NCBI GenBank assembly: GCA_030594205.1
Contig: JAUVFR010000001.1
Coordinates: forward strand, 156,252 to 220,251
Source: Methanobacteriota archaeon
Lineage (GTDB): Archaea > Thermoplasmatota > Thermoplasmata > RBG-16-68-12 > JAJISG01
Reading direction: 5' to 3'
Length of the DNA stretch: 64,000 bases
The position numbers and the translations under genes are program-made. The notes under the pieces are model-generated. The model searched no databases, had not been told where the DNA came from, and worked only from the letters and a program-made list of their open reading frames with translations. The first letter of the stretch is position 1; each line of letters opens with the position of its first letter. Shown here piece after piece: positions 8,259 to 52,595 of this stretch.

Positions 8259-8651
8259 ATGGTCCGCGGATCGTCCCACTTGGTTGCGGCTTGGAAGCTT
8301 CTGCGCTTCGATCCGGGTACGGGCTCCCTCGTGCCCCCTCTTCAGGGGACCGAACTCACGGCCGTGTTTCAAGACGATGGGAGGCTGGTCGGGTCGGCTG
8401 AATGCAACAGCTACGCCACGACCTACGAGGCGTCCAGTTCGTCATTGACAGTCAACTCTCTGGTCGCCGCGACTCGGATGTGGTGCGCAGATTCCGAAGG
8501 AGCGATGGCGCAGGAGGATGCCTTCCTTCAGGCCTGGGGCCGGGTTACCGCGTACGGCATTCACGAGAACCGTCTCGAGCTCGCGTATGCGAAAGGGATT
8601 ACCGTCCTCGACTTCATCCTTGCCGAAACCCCGGAACGGAACGCGGAGTGA
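8259..8651 (+). CDS. META/HslJ-like (DUF306) domain protein
   Basis: 130 aa. GRLVGSAECNSYATTYEA....ATRMWCADSEGAMAQEDAFLQAW...LELAYAKGITVLDF has the META-domain spacing. Confidence 0.55.
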   Translation: MVRGSSHLVAAWKLLRFDPGTGSLVPPLQGTELTAVFQDDGRLVGSAECNSYATTYEASSSSLTVNSLVAATRMWCADSEGAMAQEDAFLQAWGRVTAYGIHENRLELAYAKGITVLDFILAETPERNAE

Positions 8652-8717
8652 GCCCGTGCGGCTTTGAGAGACTCATATAGGACCAGGCACCTTCGAAGTC
8701 CGGCCGAGAGGCTTGGC

Positions 8718-9754: not shown

Positions 9755-10732
9755 GTGCAAATTCTCGTCATTGGGGGTACGGAGTTCATCGGCCGGCACA
9801 CGGTGGAAGAGCTCCTTCGCCGCGGCCACGATGTGACGGTCTTTCATCGAGGTCGCTCGCCTAACCCCTTTGGATTCCAAGTCAGGGAGCTTCTGGGGGA
9901 TCGTATGCGCCATCGAGACGTTCAGGTCGCGTTCTCGGGGGCGGTGTTCGATGCGATCGTTGACCTTGTGTACGTGTGGGGACCGGGCACGGGTCCCCCT
10001 GAGATCGCGTCTGTTCTCGATGCGGCGAAGAAGGGGTTAGAGCGGTACGTTTTCCTGAGCAGCTGCGGGGTGTATGACCCCCACGGGCCTCTTCCGGCCA
10101 CGGAGGACGGCCCCCGCACGCCTGCCCTCGGGAAATACAGTGCCGACAAGATCGCGACGGAGGATTTCCTGCTCGAGGCCCAGCAGGAGGGCCGGGTTGG
10201 CGTCTCCATCATACGGCCCCCCCACGTCTACGGACCCTACAACAACGTGCCTCGGGAGTCGTGGTTCTGGGATCGCATTATGGCAGGCCGGCCTGTCATC
10301 GTCCCGGATCAGGGCGAAACTCTCACACATCTCGCCGCCGTTTGGGACGTTGCGTGGGCCTTGTCAGAGGCCGTTGAGAATCCGGTCGCAGAAGGAGGGA
10401 TCTTCAATATCGCGGACGCGGAGCCGATCAGTCAGACGGCTCTCGTTGATCTCTTGGCGCGGGCTGCCAGCCGCGATGTTGAGAAGATTCTTGTGCCCCG
10501 CTCACGCATATACGATTATGGAGGCCGCGCCTCGGCCCCGCCGTTGTACTTCGCCCTCGCGTTGGACACCGACTTCGATCTAACCGTCGACATCTCGAAG
10601 GCCGTCCGTGTCCTCGGATTCCAGCCTACCGATCCGCTCGAGGGCTTCCGGCGGACGTTCGACTGGTACATGGAGGCGGACCGTACACGAAGGCCGAAAT
10701 TCTCCTTCGATCGGCTGCTCCTGGGTCGCTAA
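9755..10732 (+). CDS. NAD-dependent epimerase/dehydratase (extended SDR) family protein
   Basis: Rossmann motif VQILVIGGTEFIGRH. YxxxK context GKYSADK. Start placed at GTG 9755 (TTG 9740 also possible); the ORF-track start 9674 would overlap tag. Confidence 0.8.
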   Translation: MQILVIGGTEFIGRHTVEELLRRGHDVTVFHRGRSPNPFGFQVRELLGDRMRHRDVQVAFSGAVFDAIVDLVYVWGPGTGPPEIASVLDAAKKGLERYVFLSSCGVYDPHGPLPATEDGPRTPALGKYSADKIATEDFLLEAQQEGRVGVSIIRPPHVYGPYNNVPRESWFWDRIMAGRPVIVPDQGETLTHLAAVWDVAWALSEAVENPVAEGGIFNIADAEPISQTALVDLLARAASRDVEKILVPRSRIYDYGGRASAPPLYFALALDTDFDLTVDISKAVRVLGFQPTDPLEGFRRTFDWYMEADRTRRPKFSFDRLLLGR

Positions 10733-11217
10733 GGGGTCACGTCTTTTTCCCGGGTCGTGACGACCTCTTCGGCAAAGATCGCTAGTCGGCCCAACATCCG
10801 TTCTTGCCGCCCGGGAAAGACGTCGGAAAGAGCCCGGGGTTCTCGGTCCTCGAAGACCCGGTCGGCATGGTGCCGCATTCCATATTGGATGAGAGCCGTC
10901 AAGATGGGAACCGCGTCCCGCCCCTGGGCGGTAATCCGGTATCGGATGTCCCGAGGTTTCTCCGGTCCGACCACCCGTTCAATCAGCCCCTCCGTCCGGA
11001 GGTCCCGCAGGCGCATCGAGAGGACCCGTGGGGTCAACCCGGGGTTGTTGCGGAGAAGTCGGGTGAAGGACATGTCCCCAAAGAAGGCGACATCTCGAAG
11101 AACGAGGCAGGCCCATTTCTTGCCCAGGACACCGAGACTGGCTCGGATAGGGCACGCCTCGAAGGGGATCTCCGGCAGAATCGGGTCCTCCAGGGCGATA
11201 GGTACTGGCCATGCCAT
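10729..11217 (-). CDS. HxlR-family winged-helix transcriptional regulator
   Basis: CPIRASLGVLGKKWACLVLRDVAFFGDMSFTRLLRN..GLTPRVLSMRLRDLRTEGLIER is the HxlR signature. It is divergent from the VOC gene at 11308, with an AT-rich TATA-containing intergenic region (11218-11307). Confidence 0.8.
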   Translation of the reverse strand: MAWPVPIALEDPILPEIPFEACPIRASLGVLGKKWACLVLRDVAFFGDMSFTRLLRNNPGLTPRVLSMRLRDLRTEGLIERVVGPEKPRDIRYRITAQGRDAVPILTALIQYGMRHHADRVFEDREPRALSDVFPGRQERMLGRLAIFAEEVVTTREKDVTP

Positions 11218-11307
11218 AGGATCACGCTATGCTTTCGTTCCCGACTGTTGTTATATACTATACTTTGTATATCATGTTTGCGGGCGGACCCGCCAAGGAG
11301 ACAATCT

Positions 11308-11709
11308 ATGAAAGAACCTGAGGCGAAGGGGAGGGATGTGGCGACGCGAGTCTGGGTCTCGTCGGTTTCCGTTTCGGATTTCGATCGTGCTCTGGCGTTC
11401 TACCGGGACGCTCTGGGCTTTCCGGTCCAGCTGGAGGCTAGGAACTTTGGCTGGATGGAGGTCGGGCCCGACGAACCCCTATGCAAGATCGGCCTCTCGT
11501 TGAGCGAGGACCCGAAGGAGGGCGTCACGCGGACAGGAATTGTCCTGGAGGTCGAGGATATGGATGCGTTCGCAGAGAGACTCCGCGCCCACAACGTGAA
11601 GTTCACGCAAGAGCCGGCCAAACAGCCGTGGGGTGGCGTGGTCGCGGACTTCCTCGATCCCGATGGAAACGAGATCGAAGCGGTCTATCATCCGGACCAT
11701 TATGAGTAG
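11308..11709 (+). CDS. VOC/glyoxalase-family protein
   Basis: 133 aa from ATG 11308. VWVSSVSVSDFDRALAFYRDALGFPV...GIVLEVEDMDAFAERLRAHNVKF...DPDGNEIEAV. The upstream part of the 301-aa track ORF is antisense to the HxlR gene and was rejected. Confidence 0.8.
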   Translation: MKEPEAKGRDVATRVWVSSVSVSDFDRALAFYRDALGFPVQLEARNFGWMEVGPDEPLCKIGLSLSEDPKEGVTRTGIVLEVEDMDAFAERLRAHNVKFTQEPAKQPWGGVVADFLDPDGNEIEAVYHPDHYE

Positions 11710-11775: not shown

Positions 11776-12171
11776 CTAAGAGTCCACCAGGCTCGCGATC
11801 CGCTTCGGCGCCCCCCCGGCTCTCAGCTTAGCCACCGCCGCCTCTAGGATGGATATGAGCCTCTCTCGTTCGGATGGCCCTCGGCCCTCCATAGTCTGTC
11901 GCACCTGGCGAATCGAGGCAGGATCGGGGTCGACCGATTTCCGCGTGGTCCCGCCTCGGAGGAGCAGGAAGGCCACGAGGGCCAGGGCCACGCCGGCCGC
12001 GAGGAAGAAAAGGCTGAGTGCCGCCAGGCCTACCTGCAGCAGGAGAGCGAAGATGGCGTCCATGACCGCCCTTGGCGGTGCGAAGGCCAGGATTCGAACC
12101 TGGGGGAACCCCTTCGGGACTAGGCCCTGAATCCAGCGCCGTTGACAGAACTGGCACCCAAGATTCAGCAC
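11776..12171 (-). CDS. Small membrane protein or gene fragment whose middle part is paralogous to residues ~40-95 of the 8-TM protein at 13696..14703; possible pseudogene
   Basis: 131-aa ORF. Its segment FAPPRAVMDAIFALLLQVGLAALSLFFLAAGVALALVAFLLLRGGTTRKSV matches FAPPGAVIDALFDLLLTVGLAALNFAFLAAGVSLALMAFLLLRGGITRKSV of the 335-aa protein. The ORF reads through the tRNA-Leu-like fragment. Confidence 0.3.
   Translation of the reverse strand: MLNLGCQFCQRRWIQGLVPKGFPQVRILAFAPPRAVMDAIFALLLQVGLAALSLFFLAAGVALALVAFLLLRGGTTRKSVDPDPASIRQVRQTMEGRGPSERERLISILEAAVAKLRAGGAPKRIASLVDS
11930..12082. repeat. About 150-bp segment duplicated (about 80% identity) at 14406..14558, abutting a truncated tRNA-Leu-like fragment
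   Basis: Direct nucleotide comparison: gaccgatttccgcgtgGtcccgcctcggaggagcaggaaggcca... in both copies. The two copies diverge exactly where the tRNA-like sequence begins (about 12082). Confidence 0.6.
12079..12155 (-). tRNA. Truncated tRNA-Leu-like element: D-arm through 3' acceptor strand, with no matching 5' acceptor strand (pseudo-tRNA / att-site remnant)
   Basis: Minus-strand sequence GCCAGTTCTGTCAACGGCGCTGGATTCAGGGCCTAGTCCCGAAGGGGTTCCCCCAGGTTCGAATCCTGGCCTTCGCACC is about 88% identical to the 3' 60 nt of the intact tRNA-Leu(CAG) at 21434..21518, including the long variable arm and T-arm. No GCGAAGG 5' strand is present upstream and the anticodon stem has one mismatch. Confidence 0.5.
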
Positions 12172-12349
12172 ACAGAGCTTACAGATGACGGCAAGGCAAC
12201 ATTTGCACTGTTAGGTGGGCCTTCCGGGACTTTCGATGACCACGACTTGTCGCGTTATGGTTGGAGTCATGGGCCCCTCTTCCCTCGAGGAGGAAGTGTC
12301 AAAAGTCCTGGACGTCATCCAGGCGCAAAGGGGCTATGGGGCTGACAGA

Positions 12350-13174
12350 ATGAGGGGAGTGACGGGCATCGGAGGCGTCTTCTTCAAGTCGACGGATCCC
12401 GAGGAACTGGTGGCCTGGTACCAGGAGCACCTCGGGATCCAACTTCGGGAGGACGGGTCCGTCGACTTCGAATGGCGGGAGCGCAACGCGCCCCACGAGG
12501 TGGGCTACACTGTGTGGGCTCCTTTCCGGGAGGACACCACGTACTTCGATCCGAGCGAGAAGTCTTTCATGATCAACTTCCGCGTGGCCGATCTCGACTC
12601 CCTCCTGAGACAGCTCCAGGAGGAGGGCGTCGTGGTGGACGACCGGGTCGAGGATACCCCCCATGGTCGGTTCGGCTGGATCATGGACCCCGAGGGGAAC
12701 CGCGTGGAGCTGTGGGAGCCTGTCCCCAGGCCAGACAGCGCATCCCCGGCCTCCCTCCCCGGCGTCGTCGTCCCTGGTCGCGGGCTGGGGGCCGAGGTCA
12801 TGGCCGACCCGGAGCTACGGTCACGGCTGCGTCGCCTCTTCGGGTTCGACCCGGTCCCCGGGACCCTCAACGTGCTGCTCCTCGACCCCCTGCCGGAACC
12901 CCTTACTTCCTATGTGGGCTGGACGGATCTAGGCTTCGCGGAGGACGACCCTCAGGTCCCCGGTCGGCGCGGGCTCCGCTATGGCTCCGTTCTCATCGAG
13001 GGGAAGTATCAGGGAATCGCCTTCCAGGGTGATGAGCCCCGTTACCCTTCGAACCATATCGAGTTGATCAGCGACCGCCATCTGCGGGATACGCTGGGAC
13101 TCCGCAATCTCGACCGTATATGCTTCGAAATCTTGCCGACATCTGTAGATTCGGCCACCGAGCCCGACGACTGA
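12350..13174 (+). CDS. Fusion protein: N-terminal VOC/glyoxalase-like domain plus C-terminal archaeal CTP-dependent riboflavin kinase (RibK, DUF120/MJ0056-type) domain (ORF also open from 12215)
   Basis: N-domain [29 protein letters not shown]...[17 protein letters not shown] is paralogous to 8718..9104. C-domain [18 protein letters not shown]...[11 protein letters not shown]...[31 protein letters not shown] matches the MJ0056 RibK motifs ([23 protein letters not shown]). Confidence 0.7.
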   Translation: [274 protein letters not shown]

Positions 13175-13695: not shown

Positions 13696-14703
13696 TCACG
13701 TTTCCATACGGGGTCCGGCATTCTCCAATCCTGAGGGCTTCGGCAAGGTCCGGCTTTCCGCTTTCACCGGCGACCTCAGCCCGAAGGTCGAGGCCGGGAG
13801 GATGAAGAGGATGAGGCCCAAGAGGGAGAGCTGAGCGAGGTAAGTGTTCTGGAACATCCTCCCCGCGATACCGATCAGGAGGAATCCGACACCCATCCAC
13901 CGTTGCGGCTTGTCATGAAGGAGGTCCGCCAGATCGTACGCGTAGACGCCCAGGGCCAGGGCGTAGATGGGCGCGGGCAGGAAGAGGGTAAAATATACGG
14001 TCCAGACCGCAGCCAGGGAGGCGAAGGCCGACTGGGAGGCCAGCACGAAGGCGATCGCAGGCAGGGCGGCAAGGGGGACGAACCACGGTCTCCACCGGCG
14101 TCCGGGAAGGAGCAGGAAGGGCGCGGTGACCGCGAGGATTTCCCCCACGCTGAAGATCTCAGTGGCATAGGGCAGAGGAACCCCCATGGCGAACACGCTC
14201 AGGCTGGCCTGGAAATAGTAGGTGGTGCCGAGGGCGGCCGCGATGGCACAAGTGGCGAGGAAGTCCCAGGAGCGCTTCCGGGGAAAGAGGAGTAGAAGGG
14301 GGACGACGACGGCCATGGAAAGGCCATGATAGAGCAAGGGCACGCTGGGATGGAGGAGGAGGGGGAGCAGGAGTCCGAGCGCGAGGAGGAACCAGATGAG
14401 GAGGGCGACCGATTTCCGCGTGATCCCGCCTCGGAGGAGCAGGAAGGCCATGAGTGCTAGGGAGACGCCGGCGGCGAGGAAGGCGAAGTTGAGCGCCGCC
14501 AGGCCTACCGTCAGCAGGAGATCGAAGAGTGCGTCGATGACCGCTCCGGGAGGCGCGAAGGCACCCCCACGCAGGAGGAGGCGAAGCAGGACGAATTCGA
14601 CGATGGAAGCGGCGGCGACGGAGATCAGGAGAATGCGCAGCCAGGGGACGACTGCTTCTCTAGCCTGCGACGCCCCCATGTTGCGTCTCCGTCCGGTTCG
14701 CAC
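13696..14703 (-). CDS. Polytopic (~8 TM) membrane protein of unknown function, last gene of the molybdoenzyme operon
   Basis: 335 aa, highly hydrophobic. Its start overlaps the TorD-like gene end by 44 nt, which suggests co-transcription. Three His residues lie in predicted membrane segments. Confidence 0.6.
   Translation of the reverse strand: MRTGRRRNMGASQAREAVVPWLRILLISVAAASIVEFVLLRLLLRGGAFAPPGAVIDALFDLLLTVGLAALNFAFLAAGVSLALMAFLLLRGGITRKSVALLIWFLLALGLLLPLLLHPSVPLLYHGLSMAVVVPLLLLFPRKRSWDFLATCAIAAALGTTYYFQASLSVFAMGVPLPYATEIFSVGEILAVTAPFLLLPGRRWRPWFVPLAALPAIAFVLASQSAFASLAAVWTVYFTLFLPAPIYALALGVYAYDLADLLHDKPQRWMGVGFLLIGIAGRMFQNTYLAQLSLLGLILFILPASTFGLRSPVKAESRTLPKPSGLENAGPRMET
14406..14558. repeat. 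Second copy of the ~150-bp duplicated segment (inside the 8-TM protein gene)
   Basis: See 11930..12082. Confidence 0.6.
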
Positions 14704-15337
14704 CGGGAGGTACGCCCAGCCGGACCTTCTCGGCCTCGACGAGCTCCACGAGGACGTCTGCCAAGAGGGGATACAGGCTCACTCGAGCCTCCTTCTGGAT
14801 GGCATCTCGAAAGCGTCCTACCCAACGGCCTAGGTGGTCAGTCATGAACTTTCGTAGGGCATCGCGAACGACCGCGGCCGCCTCCTCCTCCCCCGCGAGC
14901 GTCGCCCGGGCCTCCTGGAGGCACAAGACCCCCATGAACTCGAGCTCCGAAACGAGGTGATCTGGCAGCTCCCCGCGGGGGATGAGGCCGAAGGCCCTGT
15001 AGAAGCCCGCCACGTCCGCCATGAGGACGTCCTTAAGGGGATCCGTTTCGTCGCGATACGAGCTCTCGTAAGGAGGGCACCGTCCCTTTTCGAAGAGACG
15101 GAGTCTCTCGGCCATGAGCGGCTCCAAGTCTTGGAGTTCTCGCTCCTCCACTTCTGAGAGCGAGGAGAGGGAGACCGTTCCCTCGGGCCCATTAGCTTCC
15201 AGACGGCGAAGTTCGCGGAGGGCTCGACCTTCGACCAGATTGTCCTTTACAGGACCGAAGGCCCTGGCGAGGGCGCCGTAGATGGCACCCATTTGAAGGG
15301 CAAACTCGGCCTTTTGCATGGCTTCGTGCTCAGTCAC
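14660..15337 (-). CDS. TorD/DmsD/NarJ-family molybdoenzyme maturation chaperone
   Basis: 225 aa, all-helical, acidic. It sits immediately downstream of the alpha/beta/gamma genes with an 8-nt overlap, which is the NarJ position in nar operons. Confidence 0.7.
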   Translation of the reverse strand: MTEHEAMQKAEFALQMGAIYGALARAFGPVKDNLVEGRALRELRRLEANGPEGTVSLSSLSEVEERELQDLEPLMAERLRLFEKGRCPPYESSYRDETDPLKDVLMADVAGFYRAFGLIPRGELPDHLVSELEFMGVLCLQEARATLAGEEEAAAVVRDALRKFMTDHLGRWVGRFRDAIQKEARVSLYPLLADVLVELVEAEKVRLGVPPGANRTETQHGGVAG

Positions 15338-16331
15338 GTTTCCGCCTCTGCCAGGTGGACCGAATCAAGAGATAGGCCGCCATCGCAGCTAGGATAATCA
15401 GGACCACTGGCACCAATATATCCAGGGCTGCGAAGGGGGGCGGCCCCGGGATATCTAGGGTGATCCAACTGGACACGGATTTACGAGCCCCCACGTCTCC
15501 CGAGGAACCATCCCAGACCGCGAGAGCGAAGTTGTACCGTCCACCCAGACCGAGGGACTGGTCCTGGGGATCGCCGGTGTTCAGCTGGCGGGCGATCGTT
15601 ACGCTCCACCGGCCGTTCGCCCAAACCCCACGGCCCAGGGCATCCTGGCGCTCCTGCGTGGTGATACTTCCGAAACCCTCGGCCACCGCGTCCTCCACGG
15701 CGGTAATCTTCAGAGGCTCGGAAAAGGGGTTGCCTACCGCCCACCCCACGAGGAGGTCCCGAGCCCCCTCGGGAAAGGCCTCGGGCAGTCGATAGGGGGG
15801 GTCCCCCACCGCGAAGGGGTAGAGGTCCACCCAGAAATTGGGGAAGGTATCCTGGAGGTCGTGGAAGCCTTCCTCGATGTCCGCCTGCCAATCGGCCTTC
15901 CACTGAACGATGTGGACCCGCTGACCGCGGGAGCCCATGCATATGCCCGGGAGATCGGAAGAGGCGAGGAGGAGGGCCGTCGCGTCCCGAAACTCAGAGA
16001 GGCCCGTGGTCCGGTTGTCCTGCGTCGCGTCGGGCCACGAGACCCTGAAGACGATATGGGTCCCGTTGTGGAGGGTGCGGACCTGGACGCTGTTGGCGAA
16101 GGGCTGAGGACGATTGGGCAGCGCCAACGTCTGTCCCGAGAGGGGAACCGTCACCTCATTCGCCTCCTCCCACGAAAGGCTGGCGGGGTCCGTGACCGGC
16201 AACTCTCCCTCCACCTCGACGCTCCGCAGAAAAAGGGCCTCCTGCCCCAAGGAGATGCCCGCCTGGACAAAGCCGATGGAGAGGACGGCCAGGGCCACCA
16301 GGACGAGCCACCGGAGCTTGAAGGCCTTCAT
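15330..16331 (-). CDS. Candidate gamma subunit: Sec-signal protein with EB_dh-like (type II DMSO-reductase heme-b subunit-like) body and a single C-terminal transmembrane anchor
   Basis: 333 aa. N-terminal signal peptide MKAFKLRWLVLVALAVLSIGFVQAG. C-terminal TM ILVPVVLIILAAMAAYLLIRSTWQRRKRD. 10-nt gap from the beta gene. The family assignment is inference from position and topology, not a clear motif match. Confidence 0.5.
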   Translation of the reverse strand: MKAFKLRWLVLVALAVLSIGFVQAGISLGQEALFLRSVEVEGELPVTDPASLSWEEANEVTVPLSGQTLALPNRPQPFANSVQVRTLHNGTHIVFRVSWPDATQDNRTTGLSEFRDATALLLASSDLPGICMGSRGQRVHIVQWKADWQADIEEGFHDLQDTFPNFWVDLYPFAVGDPPYRLPEAFPEGARDLLVGWAVGNPFSEPLKITAVEDAVAEGFGSITTQERQDALGRGVWANGRWSVTIARQLNTGDPQDQSLGLGGRYNFALAVWDGSSGDVGARKSVSSWITLDIPGPPPFAALDILVPVVLIILAAMAAYLLIRSTWQRRKRD

Positions 16332-16340
16332 GGAACCACC

Positions 16341-17489
16341 TCACGTGATGTTGTGGCGATAGACCCCTACGGTGTCGTCCCGGTAGGGGCGGACGATCTC
16401 CTTCTCCACCAGCATCACCCGAACGGCCTCCTGTCCGTTGACGTCGAACCCGACGGCTTCGTCCCCCTCGAGCCGGAATTTGGTGAGGATCTTGTTCGTA
16501 CTCGTGTTTAGGAGGAGAATCGCCCGGAGTTCGGGTTCCTGGCCGGTTCGTATCCGCTTGTAGGTCTCCACCGCTTCGTCGGCACCGGGGCCGAACATCT
16601 GGCGGTTGAACTCCGGAGGGACGTGGATGGGGGGCACGTAGTAGATGTTCGGCTCCAGGCCCAACTGTGGGTACAGGGGGAGGGCCAGTTTCTTCACGTA
16701 CACTAGGTAGTCGATCGGATTCTCGGGGTCCGCCTCACCGGGCGGGCTGATGTAGCCCACCATGCGAATCTTTCCGATGCAGTTGCGCATACACCGGGGC
16801 CATATGCCCTTCTCCACCGCCGGATAGCAGAAGATGCACTTTTCGGAAATCCGGGTCACGTGGTTGTAGAGCACCCGCTTGTAGGGGCAAGCCCGGACGC
16901 ACTCCCGGTACCCGCGACAACGCTCCTGATCGATCAGGACGATGCCGTCCTCCTTCCGTTTGTAGATGGCCTTCCGGGGGCATGAGGCTAGGCAGGCGGG
17001 ATAGGTGCAGTGCATGCAGATGCGGGCCAGGTAGAAGTTCCAGATTGCGTGGAGGTCCTGCAGGTGGAACTTGGAGGGGTCGATGGGCTCGCTGGTTTCG
17101 TCCTCTCCCCGGTTGGGGTTGGCATAATCCTCGTTCTCCGGCAAGTAGCCGAGGACGCGCTCCCCCTCCGGTGCAGCCTCAAAGACGGTCTTCCCCTCGT
17201 AGACCGCAGAAGGACCGCTGGTGTCCCATCGCTGAGGCCCCAACATGTCCAGGATCTTGACGTCCCAGCCCAGGGGGTACGATCCCCAGGGCTTCGTCTC
17301 GACGCTGTTCCAGAACATGTATTCCTGGCCTTTCCCCGAGGTCCAGATCGCCTTGCAGGACATCGTGCAGGTCTGACAGGCGATACACTTGTTGATGTCG
17401 AAGACCGAGCTCACCTGCCGATCCGGGCGAGACTCGTCGTAGATGTAGTCCATCTCCCGGCCGAGCTGCCAGTTTCGCACCGTTGGCAT
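16341..17489 (-). CDS. NarH-like iron-sulfur (4-cluster) beta subunit of a NarGH-type molybdoenzyme
   Basis: 382 aa with four Cys clusters: CIACQTCTMSCK, CMHCTYPACLASCP, CRGYRECVRACP and CIFCYPAVEKGIWPRCMRNC. WTSGKGQEYMFWNSVETKP closely matches E. coli NarH WTSREGVEYAWFNNVETKP. The central ICMHCTYPACLASCPRKAIYKRKEDGIVLIDQERCRGYRECVRACPYK is also NarH-like. Confidence 0.9.
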   Translation of the reverse strand: MPTVRNWQLGREMDYIYDESRPDRQVSSVFDINKCIACQTCTMSCKAIWTSGKGQEYMFWNSVETKPWGSYPLGWDVKILDMLGPQRWDTSGPSAVYEGKTVFEAAPEGERVLGYLPENEDYANPNRGEDETSEPIDPSKFHLQDLHAIWNFYLARICMHCTYPACLASCPRKAIYKRKEDGIVLIDQERCRGYRECVRACPYKRVLYNHVTRISEKCIFCYPAVEKGIWPRCMRNCIGKIRMVGYISPPGEADPENPIDYLVYVKKLALPLYPQLGLEPNIYYVPPIHVPPEFNRQMFGPGADEAVETYKRIRTGQEPELRAILLLNTSTNKILTKFRLEGDEAVGFDVNGQEAVRVMLVEKEIVRPYRDDTVGVYRHNIT

Positions 17490-17492
17490 TGC

Positions 17493-44278: not shown

Positions 44279-44352
44279 GCCGTTGTGGCTCAGCCTGGTA
44301 GAGCGACGCCTTGGTAAGGCGTAGGTCCCGGGTTCAAATCCCGGCAACGGCT
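44279..44352 (+). tRNA. tRNA-Thr (anticodon GGU)
   Basis: GCCGTTGTGGCTCAGCCTGGTAGAGCGACGCCTTGGTAAGGCGTAGGTCCCGGGTTCAAATCCCGGCAACGGCT. The acceptor GCCGTTG/CAACGGC pairs, the anticodon loop is TTGGTAA, and a TATA-like aaagctatat lies about 30 nt upstream. Confidence 0.85.
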
Positions 44353-49166: not shown

Positions 49167-52100
49167 CTATCCCGGGGTTCGTCCGAGCAGTTCTTCCACG
49201 ACAGTCTCCAATTCGAGTCTCTCGGCCCGTTCCCGAGCCGCTTTATACGCCTTGGACGGAAGTTGGTCTTCGAGCTTCCTGAGAAGACTGCTCGCCTCTT
49301 CCTCGATAGCCCGCCGGCGAAGGGTCGAATACTGTCTGCTGGCTGGATGACGGAGGACAAGGCTCAGGAGCTCGACGGCCCGGTCCTCCTCCTGATTTGA
49401 GGCCTTCACCTTGGCCAAATCATACAGCGTTCCCACGATCTCTCGAGTCTGCCCAATCTCCTCAGAGATTGCCAGGCTGGTCAAGTAGTGCTTCTCGGCC
49501 TCCTGGATCTCGCCGCCTTGCAGGGCGACGCTCCCAAGGTTGTTCTGAAACAACTGTCTCCCGCGTTGGAATCCGATCTCCTCCACGTTCCTCAGACCGC
49601 GCTCGTAGGTGGCCCGGGCCTTTGGAAGGTCCCCGGTTGTGACCGCCAAGGCCCCTAGACCCACGAGAGGCCAGGTCTGTCCCACGCGGTCGCCCTGCTC
49701 TTCGAACATGGCGAGGCTCTGGTTCCCCAACCGGGCAGCCTTCTCCAAGTCCCCACTTTGGAACGCACCAAAGAAGAGCCAGGCCATCGAATAGGCTTCC
49801 ATCAATGCGTCTCCCAACTCCCGGGCAATCTCAAGCGCCTCCCCCGCGGCTGCCTCGACCTCCGCTTGCCGATTGAGAAACGCACCGTTTAGGGCGAGGC
49901 AGAAAAGCGGAATGAGCCGTTCCTGTCGGCGATCCATCTTCCGGAGGGTGTCCACGGCCTCTTCGGCGAGTCGTAGTCCCTCCTCCGGGGAACCCAGAAG
50001 GCTGGTAAAGTAACCCTGGATAGCTGTGACCCTCGCTTCCACAACGACGGATTCGGGGTCTTCTGGCTTGCCCTGAAGCGCCTCAGCCGCCGCCGCCAGG
50101 AGCTCGACAGCTTCGTGGTGCCAGCCGTGAAGGTCGTAGACGTGAAGAAAGCCGTTGAGAAATCGGGAGAGGCCACCGGGGTCCTTTCTTCCGACCCAGT
50201 AGCGCCAGGCGGCCCGAATGTTGACGATGTCGTCTTTGATCTCCCGATGGGCGGCCAGCTGCCGCTGGCCCTGAAGGTCGTCCAATCGGTTCTCCACGAA
50301 TCCTGCAAAGTAGGTCCCGTGGGCCTGATCGGCTGTCGCCCTTGCAGCCTCATCGCTCCCGAGCTTCTCCTCCGCGTATTGCCTCACCCCCTCGTGGATC
50401 CAGAAACGACCCGTGTCGGGGTCCCGATGCAGCAAGGACTTTCGTTCCAGGGCCACGAGGTCGCGGACGGAGGCGGTTGCAACCTCCTCCCCCGCCTGGC
50501 GGGTGAAGCCGCCCTGGAAGACGGAGAGCGCCCGTAGGAGGTCCTGGTCCGCGGGCGTGAGGAGGGACCATGAGGCCTCAAAGGCAGCCCGAAGGCTTTG
50601 CTGGCGGCGGGGCAGGTCCGGTGCCTCGGACTGGAGGAAGTCGAGGCTGGTTTCGATCTCCTTTGCGATTTCCGCAAGAGACAGGACGTCTACCCAGGCT
50701 GCCGCGAGGAGAATGCCCAGGGGGTTGCCCTCGACGGAGCGGAGGATCCCGCGGAGATTGGGGAGGTCGTCCTCCTGTAGCGCGAACCCAGGTTCCACAT
50801 TCTCCGCCCGCTGAAGGAACAGCTGCACTGCGCTGGACCCGAGCGCCTCCTCCGAGCGCTCCCATTCCCCGACCGCGAGCCCAGACAGAGGTCGGACCCG
50901 CTCCGCCTGGAGATTAAGCCTCTCTCTGGAGGTAACGAGGAGAGCGACTCTTGGGGCGGTCTCCAGGATCCGCTGGACAAAGTCCGCCCCGTCGAGGAGG
51001 TGTTCGAAGTTATCCATCACGAGGAGCAGCCGTCGCCGTTGCAGGTGGTTCAGAATCTGAATGTCCGGGTCCTCCTCCGTGGATAGGGGAAAGCCTAGCG
51101 CCTCGGCGACCGCCTGCGGAATCCCCTCGGGGGACGCAACAGGGGCCAAGGACACGATGAAGACGCCGTCGGCGAAGGAACGCAGCAGTCGATAGGCCAC
51201 CCTAAGAGCGACGCGGGTCTTGCCGATGCCGCCTGGACCCACGAGACTGACCAGGCGGGACTCGAGATTCTCGAAGGCCGTCACTACTTCCTTTAGCTCC
51301 TCCTCTCGACCGACGACGGGGGCGACCTCCGCAGGCAGGTTGTGGACCGGATCCCTCTGAGGACGAACGGCCAATGGCCCTGCCCCTCTCCCCTCAGTGA
51401 GCGAGAGCGCAGTGGCCTCCGTGGGAAGCGGGATCTCGAATCGTGCGAAGTAGCGTCGAAGGTGGGCCGCCGCGTGTATGAGGGCGGCCAGGCGCTCCCG
51501 GTCCGCCAGGGCCTTCTTGTTGCAGAAGTTCAGGCCGACCGCCGTGGCCGCGAGGAGGAATTGGCCCCAGAGATCGTCGGTCAGGCTCGGATGGGTCTTG
51601 TCCACCCAACCCTGAAAGGCCCGTCGAACGACGATCGAGATGGAGGCCGCCCCTGCCAGTTCGATGGGGACCTCGTCGGCATCCAGGAGGTCGCCCCGCG
51701 CAAACCCGGCCGCGAAGCTTGCCCATTTGGGCAACGACACCTGAGGGAGAAGGTGGAGCAGATGGGAGAGCTCGAGGTATGCGTGGTCGTAGAGGAGGGG
51801 GGATTGCTGCTTGTAGAGGGCGAAGTCGATTAGATAATACCCGTCGAGTTTGTTCTCTTGGGGCGAGAATTTTGCCAGGATGTTCCCCGTGTTGAGGTCG
51901 CCATGCTGAAAACCCAGAATGGAATCGATGGGTCTCGTGTCGGACCATAGGTCCGGATCTCGGGCGTAGGCCAGGGGGTTGGGGTACGCGACGCCCTCGA
52001 GGAGAAGTCCGGGGGTCTCGGGCCGAACCCGACATACGTCTTGGAGAAACGTCTCGATCCGGCCCCCTTCCTCGAGTCGGTAGCCCAGCCAACGAGTCAG

Positions 52101-52595
52101 GAGGTCGCGGGGATGAGTCGCCCTTTCGAAGGACGCGCCTTCATTCCACTCGCCGAGTAGTCCCCCCATGACTGTCTGGGCGATGGTTGCGAATTGACCC
52201 CGGGAGCGGAAGGCCGAGAGGGGACGGTAACTCTGCAGAGATTCGCCTGCGATGGTGTAGAAGATGACCACTGAATCCCCGTATTCCACCTGTTCCATGG
52301 CGAGGTCGGGCATGTGGTCCCGCGCGAAGGGGACGGGCGCCGCCGTCCGGGCCATGCGATGGCGCTCTACCTCTCCCGGACCGTAGGGGTTCCGGCGATC
52401 GAGCTTCAGGATCAGGTGTTCCAATCGAGGCGCGTTCGCGCGCGAAGCGCTTGCGAGATAGAGATAGGCGCCCGATCGACCCCCTCCCAATCGAGAGAGG
52501 GGTGTCACCCTCAGGCCATGTCGGGCCAGGGCCTCGCGAAGCGCTTCCTGAAGGTGTTCGGGAAGCTCCTCGAACTCAGGGGCAAGCTCTGGCAT
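49167..52595 (-). CDS. Multidomain signalling ATPase: N-terminal protein-kinase-like/APH-like domain, central STAND (NB-ARC-type) NTPase, C-terminal TPR repeats
   Basis: 1142 aa. Kinase-like features: G-loop LGGGRSGAYLY, VAIK-like HLILKLD, catalytic-loop-like HGDLNTGNILAKF and DFG-like YLIDFALY. STAND features: Walker A LVGPGGIGKTRVALRVA, Walker B RRLLLVMDNFEHLL. The C-terminal ~450 aa are helical TPR-like repeats. Confidence 0.85.
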   Translation of the reverse strand: MPELAPEFEELPEHLQEALREALARHGLRVTPLSRLGGGRSGAYLYLASASRANAPRLEHLILKLDRRNPYGPGEVERHRMARTAAPVPFARDHMPDLAMEQVEYGDSVVIFYTIAGESLQSYRPLSAFRSRGQFATIAQTVMGGLLGEWNEGASFERATHPRDLLTRWLGYRLEEGGRIETFLQDVCRVRPETPGLLLEGVAYPNPLAYARDPDLWSDTRPIDSILGFQHGDLNTGNILAKFSPQENKLDGYYLIDFALYKQQSPLLYDHAYLELSHLLHLLPQVSLPKWASFAAGFARGDLLDADEVPIELAGAASISIVVRRAFQGWVDKTHPSLTDDLWGQFLLAATAVGLNFCNKKALADRERLAALIHAAAHLRRYFARFEIPLPTEATALSLTEGRGAGPLAVRPQRDPVHNLPAEVAPVVGREEELKEVVTAFENLESRLVSLVGPGGIGKTRVALRVAYRLLRSFADGVFIVSLAPVASPEGIPQAVAEALGFPLSTEEDPDIQILNHLQRRRLLLVMDNFEHLLDGADFVQRILETAPRVALLVTSRERLNLQAERVRPLSGLAVGEWERSEEALGSSAVQLFLQRAENVEPGFALQEDDLPNLRGILRSVEGNPLGILLAAAWVDVLSLAEIAKEIETSLDFLQSEAPDLPRRQQSLRAAFEASWSLLTPADQDLLRALSVFQGGFTRQAGEEVATASVRDLVALERKSLLHRDPDTGRFWIHEGVRQYAEEKLGSDEAARATADQAHGTYFAGFVENRLDDLQGQRQLAAHREIKDDIVNIRAAWRYWVGRKDPGGLSRFLNGFLHVYDLHGWHHEAVELLAAAAEALQGKPEDPESVVVEARVTAIQGYFTSLLGSPEEGLRLAEEAVDTLRKMDRRQERLIPLFCLALNGAFLNRQAEVEAAAGEALEIARELGDALMEAYSMAWLFFGAFQSGDLEKAARLGNQSLAMFEEQGDRVGQTWPLVGLGALAVTTGDLPKARATYERGLRNVEEIGFQRGRQLFQNNLGSVALQGGEIQEAEKHYLTSLAISEEIGQTREIVGTLYDLAKVKASNQEEDRAVELLSLVLRHPASRQYSTLRRRAIEEEASSLLRKLEDQLPSKAYKAARERAERLELETVVEELLGRTPG

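Follow-up and report, generated by a model that had tools for sequence, protein, structure and literature searches.

A gene joining a VOC domain to a divergent domain of the archaeal riboflavin kinase fold in a narrow Thermoplasmatota clade

The window considered here is a stretch of 64,000 nucleotides of archaeal DNA (GenBank assembly GCA_030594205.1, contig JAUVFR010000001.1), and its subject is a gene whose product carries an N-terminal VOC domain and a C-terminal domain of family PF01982 (DUF120), the family of the archaeal cytidine triphosphate (CTP)-dependent riboflavin kinase RibK. On its upstream side, at a distance of 640 bp, is a divergent pair encoding an HxlR-family regulator and a second VOC protein (VOC2), and a membrane protein and an operon of NarG/H/J and EB_dh-type molybdoenzyme components are found downstream of the gene. 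Otherwise the window holds genes usual in archaeal chromosomes (thermosome, DnaK/DnaJ/GrpE, CDC48, primase, and an Opp transporter). Within the 64-kb window there are no riboflavin, flavin mononucleotide (FMN)/flavin adenine dinucleotide, or F420 genes, and a six-frame hidden Markov model and phmmer search of the window finds no second DUF120 or ribK.

The uninterrupted open reading frame extends on the + strand from 12215 to 13174. An earlier reading of the window, made from the DNA alone (the sequence-only reading), placed the start of the gene at the GTG at 12215. The start is instead assigned to the ATG at 12350, which gives 274 residues, because in-frame stops precede the equivalent ATG in the L006 ortholog and the same ATG is common to loci L001, L005, and L006 in the alignment. 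All orthologs share the N-terminus of the window protein (MRGVTGIGG...). In Pfam scans the N-terminal half matches the VOC profiles PF00903 (36.7 bits) and PF18029 (34.7 bits). Over profile positions 1-121 of 121, PF01982 is matched with 42.7 bits by the whole protein and 45.6 bits by the C-terminal half alone (gathering threshold 25). All VOC and PF01982 matches exceed their gathering scores, and the halves scanned singly give the same result, which upholds the earlier placement of the C-terminal domain in the DUF120/RibK family. Both domains have confident predicted folds, the N-terminal half that of VOC proteins and the C-terminal half the cradle-loop barrel of MJ0056. Structure prediction had been proposed as a way to view an inter-domain interface; no interface between the VOC and DUF120 halves is predicted, and the product is modeled as two independently folding modules on a freely evolving linker of about 13 residues (predicted template modeling score 0.52). 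The parts of the gene are collected in Table 1.

Table 1. Parts of the fusion gene and its upstream region, in window coordinates (pLDDT, predicted local distance difference test; dN/dS, ratio of nonsynonymous to synonymous substitution rates, also omega)
Feature	Coordinates	Strand	Remarks
Fusion coding sequence	12350..13174	+	274 aa + TGA stop; ATG 12350 is the conserved start
VOC (glyoxalase/bleomycin-resistance/dioxygenase) domain	12350..12721	+	aa 1-124; two beta-alpha-beta-beta-beta modules; sub-family without conserved His
Inter-domain linker	12722..12760	+	aa 125-137; unconstrained; pLDDT <50 at residues 128-131; dN/dS >1
Class-B DUF120 / CTP-dep_RFKase-fold domain	12761..13135	+	aa 138-262
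Acidic, disordered C-terminal tail	13136..13171	+	aa 263-274; pLDDT <50 at residues 266-274; freely evolving
Conserved non-coding stretch, ~75 nt	12275..12349	+	abuts start codon of fusion gene

A homolog search finds fused proteins (P0001 at 98% identity and P0002 at 82%) together with two apparent stand-alone close homologs, P0003 (DUF120, 156 aa) and P0004 (VOC, 174 aa), which suggested that two genes might have been read as one. This was rejected at both loci. The P0003 locus (L005) contains the complete fusion in one frame, with 91% identity at the DNA level, and the start of P0003 is mis-called at an internal codon. At the P0004 locus (L001, and likewise L002-L004 from three independent Logan assemblies) one nucleotide is missing from the linker, homology stops after codon 200, and the last ~75 DUF120 codons are swapped for unrelated sequence, followed by a ferredoxin gene. 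P0004 is thus a real frameshifted, 3'-truncated remnant, reproduced in four assemblies. Another database protein, P0387, is identical to the window protein; it is encoded on a 283.8-kb contig and falls in the 90%-identity cluster of P0001. Including P0387 and five more, at least six fused sequence variants from independent assemblies have the same continuous frame. Because the identical P0387 and the further fused variants come from separate assemblies, the VOC-DUF120 fusion is a real single gene and no assembly artefact, as the sequence-only reading had proposed; the undetected frameshift or stop between the domains that it had considered is absent from the window gene. The orthologous fusions that it proposed to look for in other archaea do occur, and their named sources are exclusively metagenome-assembled genomes of Thermoplasmata or Thermoplasmatota that form one narrow clade; GCA_022848745.1 and GCA_036482455.1 are among the assemblies with the gene. 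Its judgment that the architecture is unusual is borne out by an exhaustive HMMER search over 1.84 billion representatives, in which 1 of the 436 PF01982-family members at 50% identity (P0002) combines VOC and DUF120.

In the numbering of TA1064, the conserved CTP-site residues of the family are Gly102, Gly104, Gly106, Thr131, Leu132, Asn133, Leu202, and Arg203, with Tyr or Phe at position 128, and FMN is contacted by Tyr109 (Phe in MjRibK), Tyr115, Phe165, Pro185, Tyr190, and Glu195 (PMC5397151). Tyr115 is described as "absolutely conserved" in RibK and in RbkR, the fusion with a winged helix-turn-helix (wHTH) domain, while Tyr/Phe109 and Phe/Tyr165 are conservatively substituted (PMC5397151). 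In the window protein all eight CTP-site residues are kept (G143/G145/G147, T172/L173/N174, and L245/R246, in the motifs GxGxG, GTLN at G171-N174, and LR), as is the proposed catalytic Glu (E238, corresponding to E195). Three aromatic residues that contact flavin and cytidine in canonical RibK are aliphatic: Tyr109 corresponds to V150, Tyr115 to L156, and Tyr128 to V169 (VPGTLN vs YxGTLN). These three assignments are robust because the stretch from GxGxG to GTLN is gap-free and has 30 residues in both MJ0056 and the window protein. Residue correspondences were taken from three alignment methods (phmmer, hmmalign, and hhalign), which agree less well beyond GTLN, where Pro185 becomes G227 in two of the three.

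Overall identity to canonical RibK is about 25%, and the window protein differs further by an insertion of eight residues (QVPGRRGL) before the strand that carries the Phe165 equivalent. The NCBIfam model ribK_Meth (NF040694, cut-off 168) scores 29.6 bits against the whole protein and 32.6 bits against the C-terminal half; the wHTH/riboflavin kinase model (NF010762, cut-off 279) scores 31.9 and 35.1 bits, respectively. Profile, fold, and motifs place the window protein in PF01982 and in the VOC superfamily. Its equivalog scores, its residues at Tyr115, Tyr/Phe109, and Tyr/Phe128, and its missing wHTH domain would set it outside canonical RibK/RbkR (EC 2.7.1.161). The sequence-only reading had recognized MJ0056-type RibK motifs in this half: the nucleotide motifs, the Glu, and the fold stand, and the step to a functional RibK does not, with equivalog scores of ~30-32 bits and no aromatic residues at 115, 109, and 128. 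The phosphoryl-transfer apparatus appears intact and the substrate pocket remodeled, which is not to say that every flavin contact is gone.

The same pattern, here termed class B (non-aromatic residues at 109, 115, and 128, and Gly/Ala at 185), is shared by all HMMER matches as far as about E=1e-11, and sequences of the canonical RibK/RbkR type, among them all wHTH fusions of ~215-245 aa, come only further down. Position 128 is Val or Ile across class B. In a neighbor-joining tree of near-full-length domains, class B is a clean clade (17/17) with the window protein among archaeal stand-alone members, and profile-profile comparison gives 99.7% probability of homology to the canonical class. A signature of its own is conserved in class B (G-R-G, M151, Y188, G208, EPxYP, and H-L-R), which argues for a conserved, different function and not for decay, and the catalytic Glu is invariant over the class.

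Most class-B proteins stand alone, with ~135-145 aa. Among the matches listed, bacterial members come from Chloroflexota/Dehalococcoidia, Actinomycetes, Thermoleophilia, Limnocylindria, and Entotheonellaceae, and archaeal members from Methanomassiliicoccales/Thermoplasmata; this taxonomic distribution is a sample, and at least 11 loci stem from a contig profile search with a narrower alignment. Because bacterial FMN synthesis relies on RibF-type kinases, class B is unlikely to have a housekeeping role there. Beyond shadow ORFs (open reading frames) and the synteny of close relatives, no recurring neighbor is seen over 17 other class-B loci. Class-B fusions in public data include EthD/ABM+DUF120 (P0127, the closest relative outside the fused clade), DUF120+NUDIX (P0157 and P0167), DUF120+PEMT/ICMT (P0137), and DUF120+GDE_N, and canonical-like DUF120 is found in HAD+DUF120 and PNPOx-like+DUF120 proteins. 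The sequence-only reading had named HTH domains as the known partners of archaeal RibK, a list that these EthD/ABM, NUDIX, HAD, PNPOx-like, PEMT, and GDE_N fusions extend. In two public proteins, P0229 and P0258, the partners of canonical-type DUF120 are a PNPOx-like domain, an FMN-binding split barrel, and, in Dehalococcoidia, a HAD phosphatase; no mention of PNPOx-like or HAD fusions of DUF120 was found in the searchable literature. The HAD+DUF120 arrangement recalls the FMN-hydrolase/riboflavin-kinase fusions of plants.

The VOC half keeps every invariant of its sub-family, in which His is conserved at no position. The classical His/Glu metal-ligand positions (beta1, beta4, beta5, and beta8) are presumed here from general knowledge of the fold rather than from structural superposition. 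With that placement the beta1 position is an invariant Gly-Gly (G8, G9), beta5 has the invariant residues N76 and R78, and only the beta8 Glu (E120) is present. NCBIfam equivalogs for glyoxalase I and Fos give 13-19 bits against cut-offs of 120-280, and Trp, Phe, and Tyr abound in the conserved core. The VOC half is probably no classical metal-dependent glyoxalase or dioxygenase. The sequences closest to it, at 50-67% identity, have a single VOC domain or VOC domains in tandem and carry the annotation "predicted enzyme related to lactoylglutathione lyase". The few for which an organism name is given come from bacteria, which suggests a horizontal origin of this half. The sub-family is also joined to SnoaL, ABM, AHSA1, and PGDH domains. 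An origin by duplication of the adjacent VOC2 was considered and rejected at only 25% identity.

The closest stand-alone class-B gene encodes P0125 (140 aa, 55% identity over 128 aa), at locus L025 (GCA_012974985.1). This locus is colinear with the window upstream (adenine glycosylase, HxlR, and VOC2) and downstream (a 626-aa protein, PGM/PMM, NTP-transferase, glycosyltransferase, JAB, and NAD kinase), and because it is colinear on both sides P0125 is taken as the positional ortholog and the stand-alone gene as the ancestral state. In the fused clade both halves are under purifying selection (omega ~0.12 for VOC and ~0.20 for DUF120, at synonymous divergence, dS, of ~0.45-0.53); no such constraint is seen on the linker and tail. 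The L001 lineage has an inactivated kinase half and keeps the VOC half at omega 0.09-0.16. Since the kinase half can be lost, it cannot be the sole riboflavin kinase of that lineage at least. The suggestion that the fusion might be the housekeeping enzyme in an odd guise is therefore very unlikely, with that half pseudogenized in a sister lineage and the same clade present in bacteria.

Three further observations concern L001 (GCA_046759185.1). Its DUF120 remnant (8411-8711) has dN/dS of ~0.22-0.29 against intact orthologs, a value that suggests recent inactivation. The new sequence that replaces the 3' end of DUF120 runs into the ferredoxin gene, which encodes 142 aa. Genes for a GyrI-like protein and an F420H2-dependent quinone reductase stand directly upstream of the VOC gene.

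The best explanation, to which about even credence is given, is a lineage-specific modular fusion of a non-canonical VOC protein with a nucleoside triphosphate (NTP)-dependent small-molecule kinase whose substrate is probably not riboflavin. A VOC gene would have been joined to the 5' end of the resident stand-alone class-B DUF120 gene in a small Thermoplasmatota clade. Judged by its motifs, the C-terminal module would still be an NTP-dependent (probably CTP-dependent) phosphotransferase, because every nucleotide-phosphate contact and the catalytic Glu are kept. It would not be a canonical or housekeeping riboflavin kinase, because the aromatics are replaced by aliphatics, the clade also occurs in bacteria, and the half was discarded in a sister lineage. 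Its physiological substrate would be a compound other than riboflavin, or riboflavin would be bound quite differently. The VOC half may bind or transform a small, probably aromatic compound without a classical metal center. In the weakest step of the proposal, both modules would act on the same small, hydroxylated, probably aromatic compound, which the VOC domain would bind or convert and the DUF120 domain phosphorylate. The fusion may also belong to the neighboring HxlR-VOC2 pair as a xenobiotic- or electrophile-response neighborhood. Single VOC domains normally dimerize, and the VOC half may make the kinase dimeric.

A wider form of this proposal is more tentative. Class-B DUF120 as a whole could be an unrecognized family of NTP-dependent small-molecule kinases on the riboflavin-kinase barrel with a non-riboflavin substrate, and VOC-DUF120 a two-step enzyme whose VOC half binds or converts the compound. 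Candidate class-B substrates include xenobiotics, antibiotics, flavin analogues, and deazaflavins such as Fo. The named class-B hosts (Actinomycetota, Chloroflexota, Entotheonellaceae, and Thermoplasmata/Methanomassiliicoccales) overlap with the lineages reported to make F420, and the gene next to VOC in L001 on the upstream side is that of the F420H2-dependent quinone reductase.

Several points weigh against a modular enzyme with a new substrate. The kinase activity of class B would follow from its conserved motifs alone, and the structural models, with no predicted interface, lend no support to cooperation between the halves. Only one narrow clade has the fusion, L001 has kept the VOC half without its partner, and a VOC protein of the fused sub-family is adjacent to class-B DUF120 at none of the 17 other loci. 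The DGD turn found across the family is NLD in the fused clade, a change that could signal some relaxation. In the flavin site, Tyr190 corresponds to Y232 in two of the three alignments and is probably retained, and the register of Phe165 is ambiguous (R206, R210, or Y211); some FMN contacts may survive, and an altered form of flavin binding is possible.

The main rival, doubtful though to be taken seriously, is an incidental fusion, in which two unrelated functional neighbors came to lie in one open reading frame through loss of a stop or intergenic stretch and have no coupling. It would fit the ancestral locus with a stand-alone DUF120 gene, the restriction to one narrow clade and 1 of 436 representatives, the neutrally evolving linker and lack of a predicted interface, the absence of VOC-DUF120 neighborhoods at other loci, the selection on the VOC half after loss of DUF120 in L001, and the promiscuity of the VOC sub-family (SnoaL, ABM, AHSA1, and PGDH). 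It sits poorly with a fusion that has been kept over dS of ~0.5 in at least six variants and never re-split. Class-B DUF120 has, moreover, repeatedly gained EthD, NUDIX, and PEMT partners, which suggests that such a partnership is useful, and a VOC half that does not derive from the adjacent VOC2 requires a specific insertion in front of DUF120.

A bona fide CTP-dependent kinase of riboflavin or an analogue, in which the VOC half gates FMN production by a ligand or detoxifies flavin analogues, is unlikely. The end-to-end PF01982 match above the gathering score, the MJ0056 fold, and the intact CTP site and catalytic Glu are compatible with it, as are the possibly kept Tyr190, an aromatic residue near the Phe165 position, and an aromatic-rich VOC core that could suit a planar ligand. 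These are set against Val at both Tyr/Phe109 and Tyr/Phe128, scores far under the ribK equivalog cut-offs, a kinase half that is dispensable in L001, the occurrence of the same clade in bacteria that use RibF, and the lack of riboflavin genes nearby. It is more improbable still that the DUF120 half lacks catalysis and senses a nucleotide or ligand so as to control a VOC enzyme allosterically: a precedent is offered by RbkR, whose kinase domain also senses CTP and FMN (PMC5397151), and the nucleotide-binding motifs are conserved, yet the catalytic Glu is invariant in class B, most class-B proteins stand alone with nothing to regulate, and the linker is flexible with no predicted interface. An artefact that joined two genes by an undetected sequencing frameshift or misassembly, as the "stand-alone" P0003 and P0004 of the gene callers might imply, has practically no probability left, since the former is a mis-called start in an intact fusion, the latter is a real remnant seen in four assemblies, and the frame is continuous in at least six independently assembled variants.

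The modular fusion can be compared with several known systems. Relative to canonical RibK, the window domain belongs to a separate clade that is also bacterial, and it is VOC-fused and dispensable in a sister lineage. As in RbkR (TA1064; PDB 3CTA and 5TRD), PF01982 is C-terminal to an added domain of ~90-130 aa that probably mediates dimerization. Unlike in RbkR, this partner is a VOC domain and not a DNA-binding wHTH, the kinase domain is of class B, there is no riboflavin regulon context, and the fusion is limited to one narrow clade, whereas RbkR is spread over major archaeal lineages. RibK and RbkR are never found together in one genome (PMC5397151). The class-B fusions P0127, P0157, P0167, and P0137 likewise combine the divergent kinase-like domain with a small-molecule enzyme or binding domain, which in P0127 is N-terminal as in the window protein; the partner domains otherwise differ. 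The VOC half resembles small VOC proteins with no classical metal center or no assigned function, namely Rv0577 (PDB 3OXH), RHA04853 (PDB 2R6U), and the mitomycin-binding protein MRD (PDB 1KMZ), in its paired beta-alpha-beta-beta-beta fold and size, but only ~20% of residues are identical and no function is transferable.

In the literature searched, the wHTH domain is the sole partner described for archaeal RibK (PMC5397151; bioRxiv 10.1101/2021.04.15.440061). Searches of the literature for class B or VOC-DUF120 return only canonical RibK and the wHTH fusion, and matches to "DUF120" are false positives for DUF1205 and DUF1220. Public databases contain both the VOC-DUF120 architecture and the class-B clade, which, as far as was found, the searchable literature does not yet describe. 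The archaeal CTP-dependent riboflavin kinase fold is now treated as having one function, and public pipelines label all members "CTP-dependent riboflavin kinase". A sizeable clade in archaea and bacteria, with several fusion partners, appears to keep the phosphotransfer machinery on a remodeled pocket; class B flags systematic over-annotation and defines a concrete family for enzyme discovery. The stand-alone ancestor, the fused form, and the lineage without the kinase half offer natural experiments on function. The VOC fusion itself, a narrow and lineage-specific event, may mean little for mechanism.

Despite differing upstream neighbors, the window, L005, L006, and L001 share a conserved stretch of ~75 nt before the start codon. 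It matches no Rfam family, even at E<=1, and contains two weakly supported hairpins with a few compensatory changes among only four sequences. A riboswitch or known RNA was rejected, with no Rfam match and a weak consensus fold from four sequences, and the stretch probably represents a promoter or leader carried along with the VOC half. An anti-phage defense role for the gene was also rejected, with no match in PADLOC. The divergent HxlR-VOC2 pair (10729-11709; VOC2 matches PF00903/PF12681) is near class-B DUF120 in L005, L025, and L026 as well, and a VOC2 homolog is present in L013; the association may reflect synteny among relatives or a functional electrophile- or xenobiotic-response neighborhood.

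Just upstream of the fusion gene is a degenerate, partial tRNA-Leu(CAG) (12078-12146, - strand), which spans the anticodon arm to the 3' acceptor without the 5' acceptor and D-arm and is 93% identical to an intact gene at 21433-21518 (- strand). The intact gene is called by ARAGORN; an Rfam scan at the gathering threshold gave only tRNA-Thr (44279-44352). The two copies are direct repeats that flank a 9.35-kb segment containing the fusion gene, the membrane protein, and the Nar-like operon, with no integrase inside the segment. An intact tRNA-Leu lies immediately 3' of the fusion stop codon in L006, and in L001 the Nar operon is on the opposite side of the VOC gene. These surroundings look like a tRNA-adjacent rearrangement hot spot or an island remnant. 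Between VOC2 and the fusion gene, a 131-aa "ORF" (11776-12171, - strand) is unlikely to be a gene: at its 5' end the frame crosses the tRNA-Leu fragment, and the rest (11928-12087) is an 84% copy of 14403-14562, the N-terminal part of the membrane-protein gene at 13696-14703. A 142-aa gene is annotated at the same place in L005.

The Nar-like operon (14660-21047, - strand) encodes a NarG-like molybdopterin subunit (1184 aa), a NarH-like 4Fe-4S protein, an EB_dh (ethylbenzene-dehydrogenase gamma-like heme) protein, and a NarJ-like chaperone. It is 87-91% identical to that of L001, where its position relative to the VOC gene differs. Elsewhere in the window, at 49167-52595 on the - strand, a 1142-aa protein contains TCAD9 (ternary-complex-associated domain 9), an AAA/STAND-type NTPase, and TPR regions, an architecture associated with prokaryotic conflict or signaling systems.

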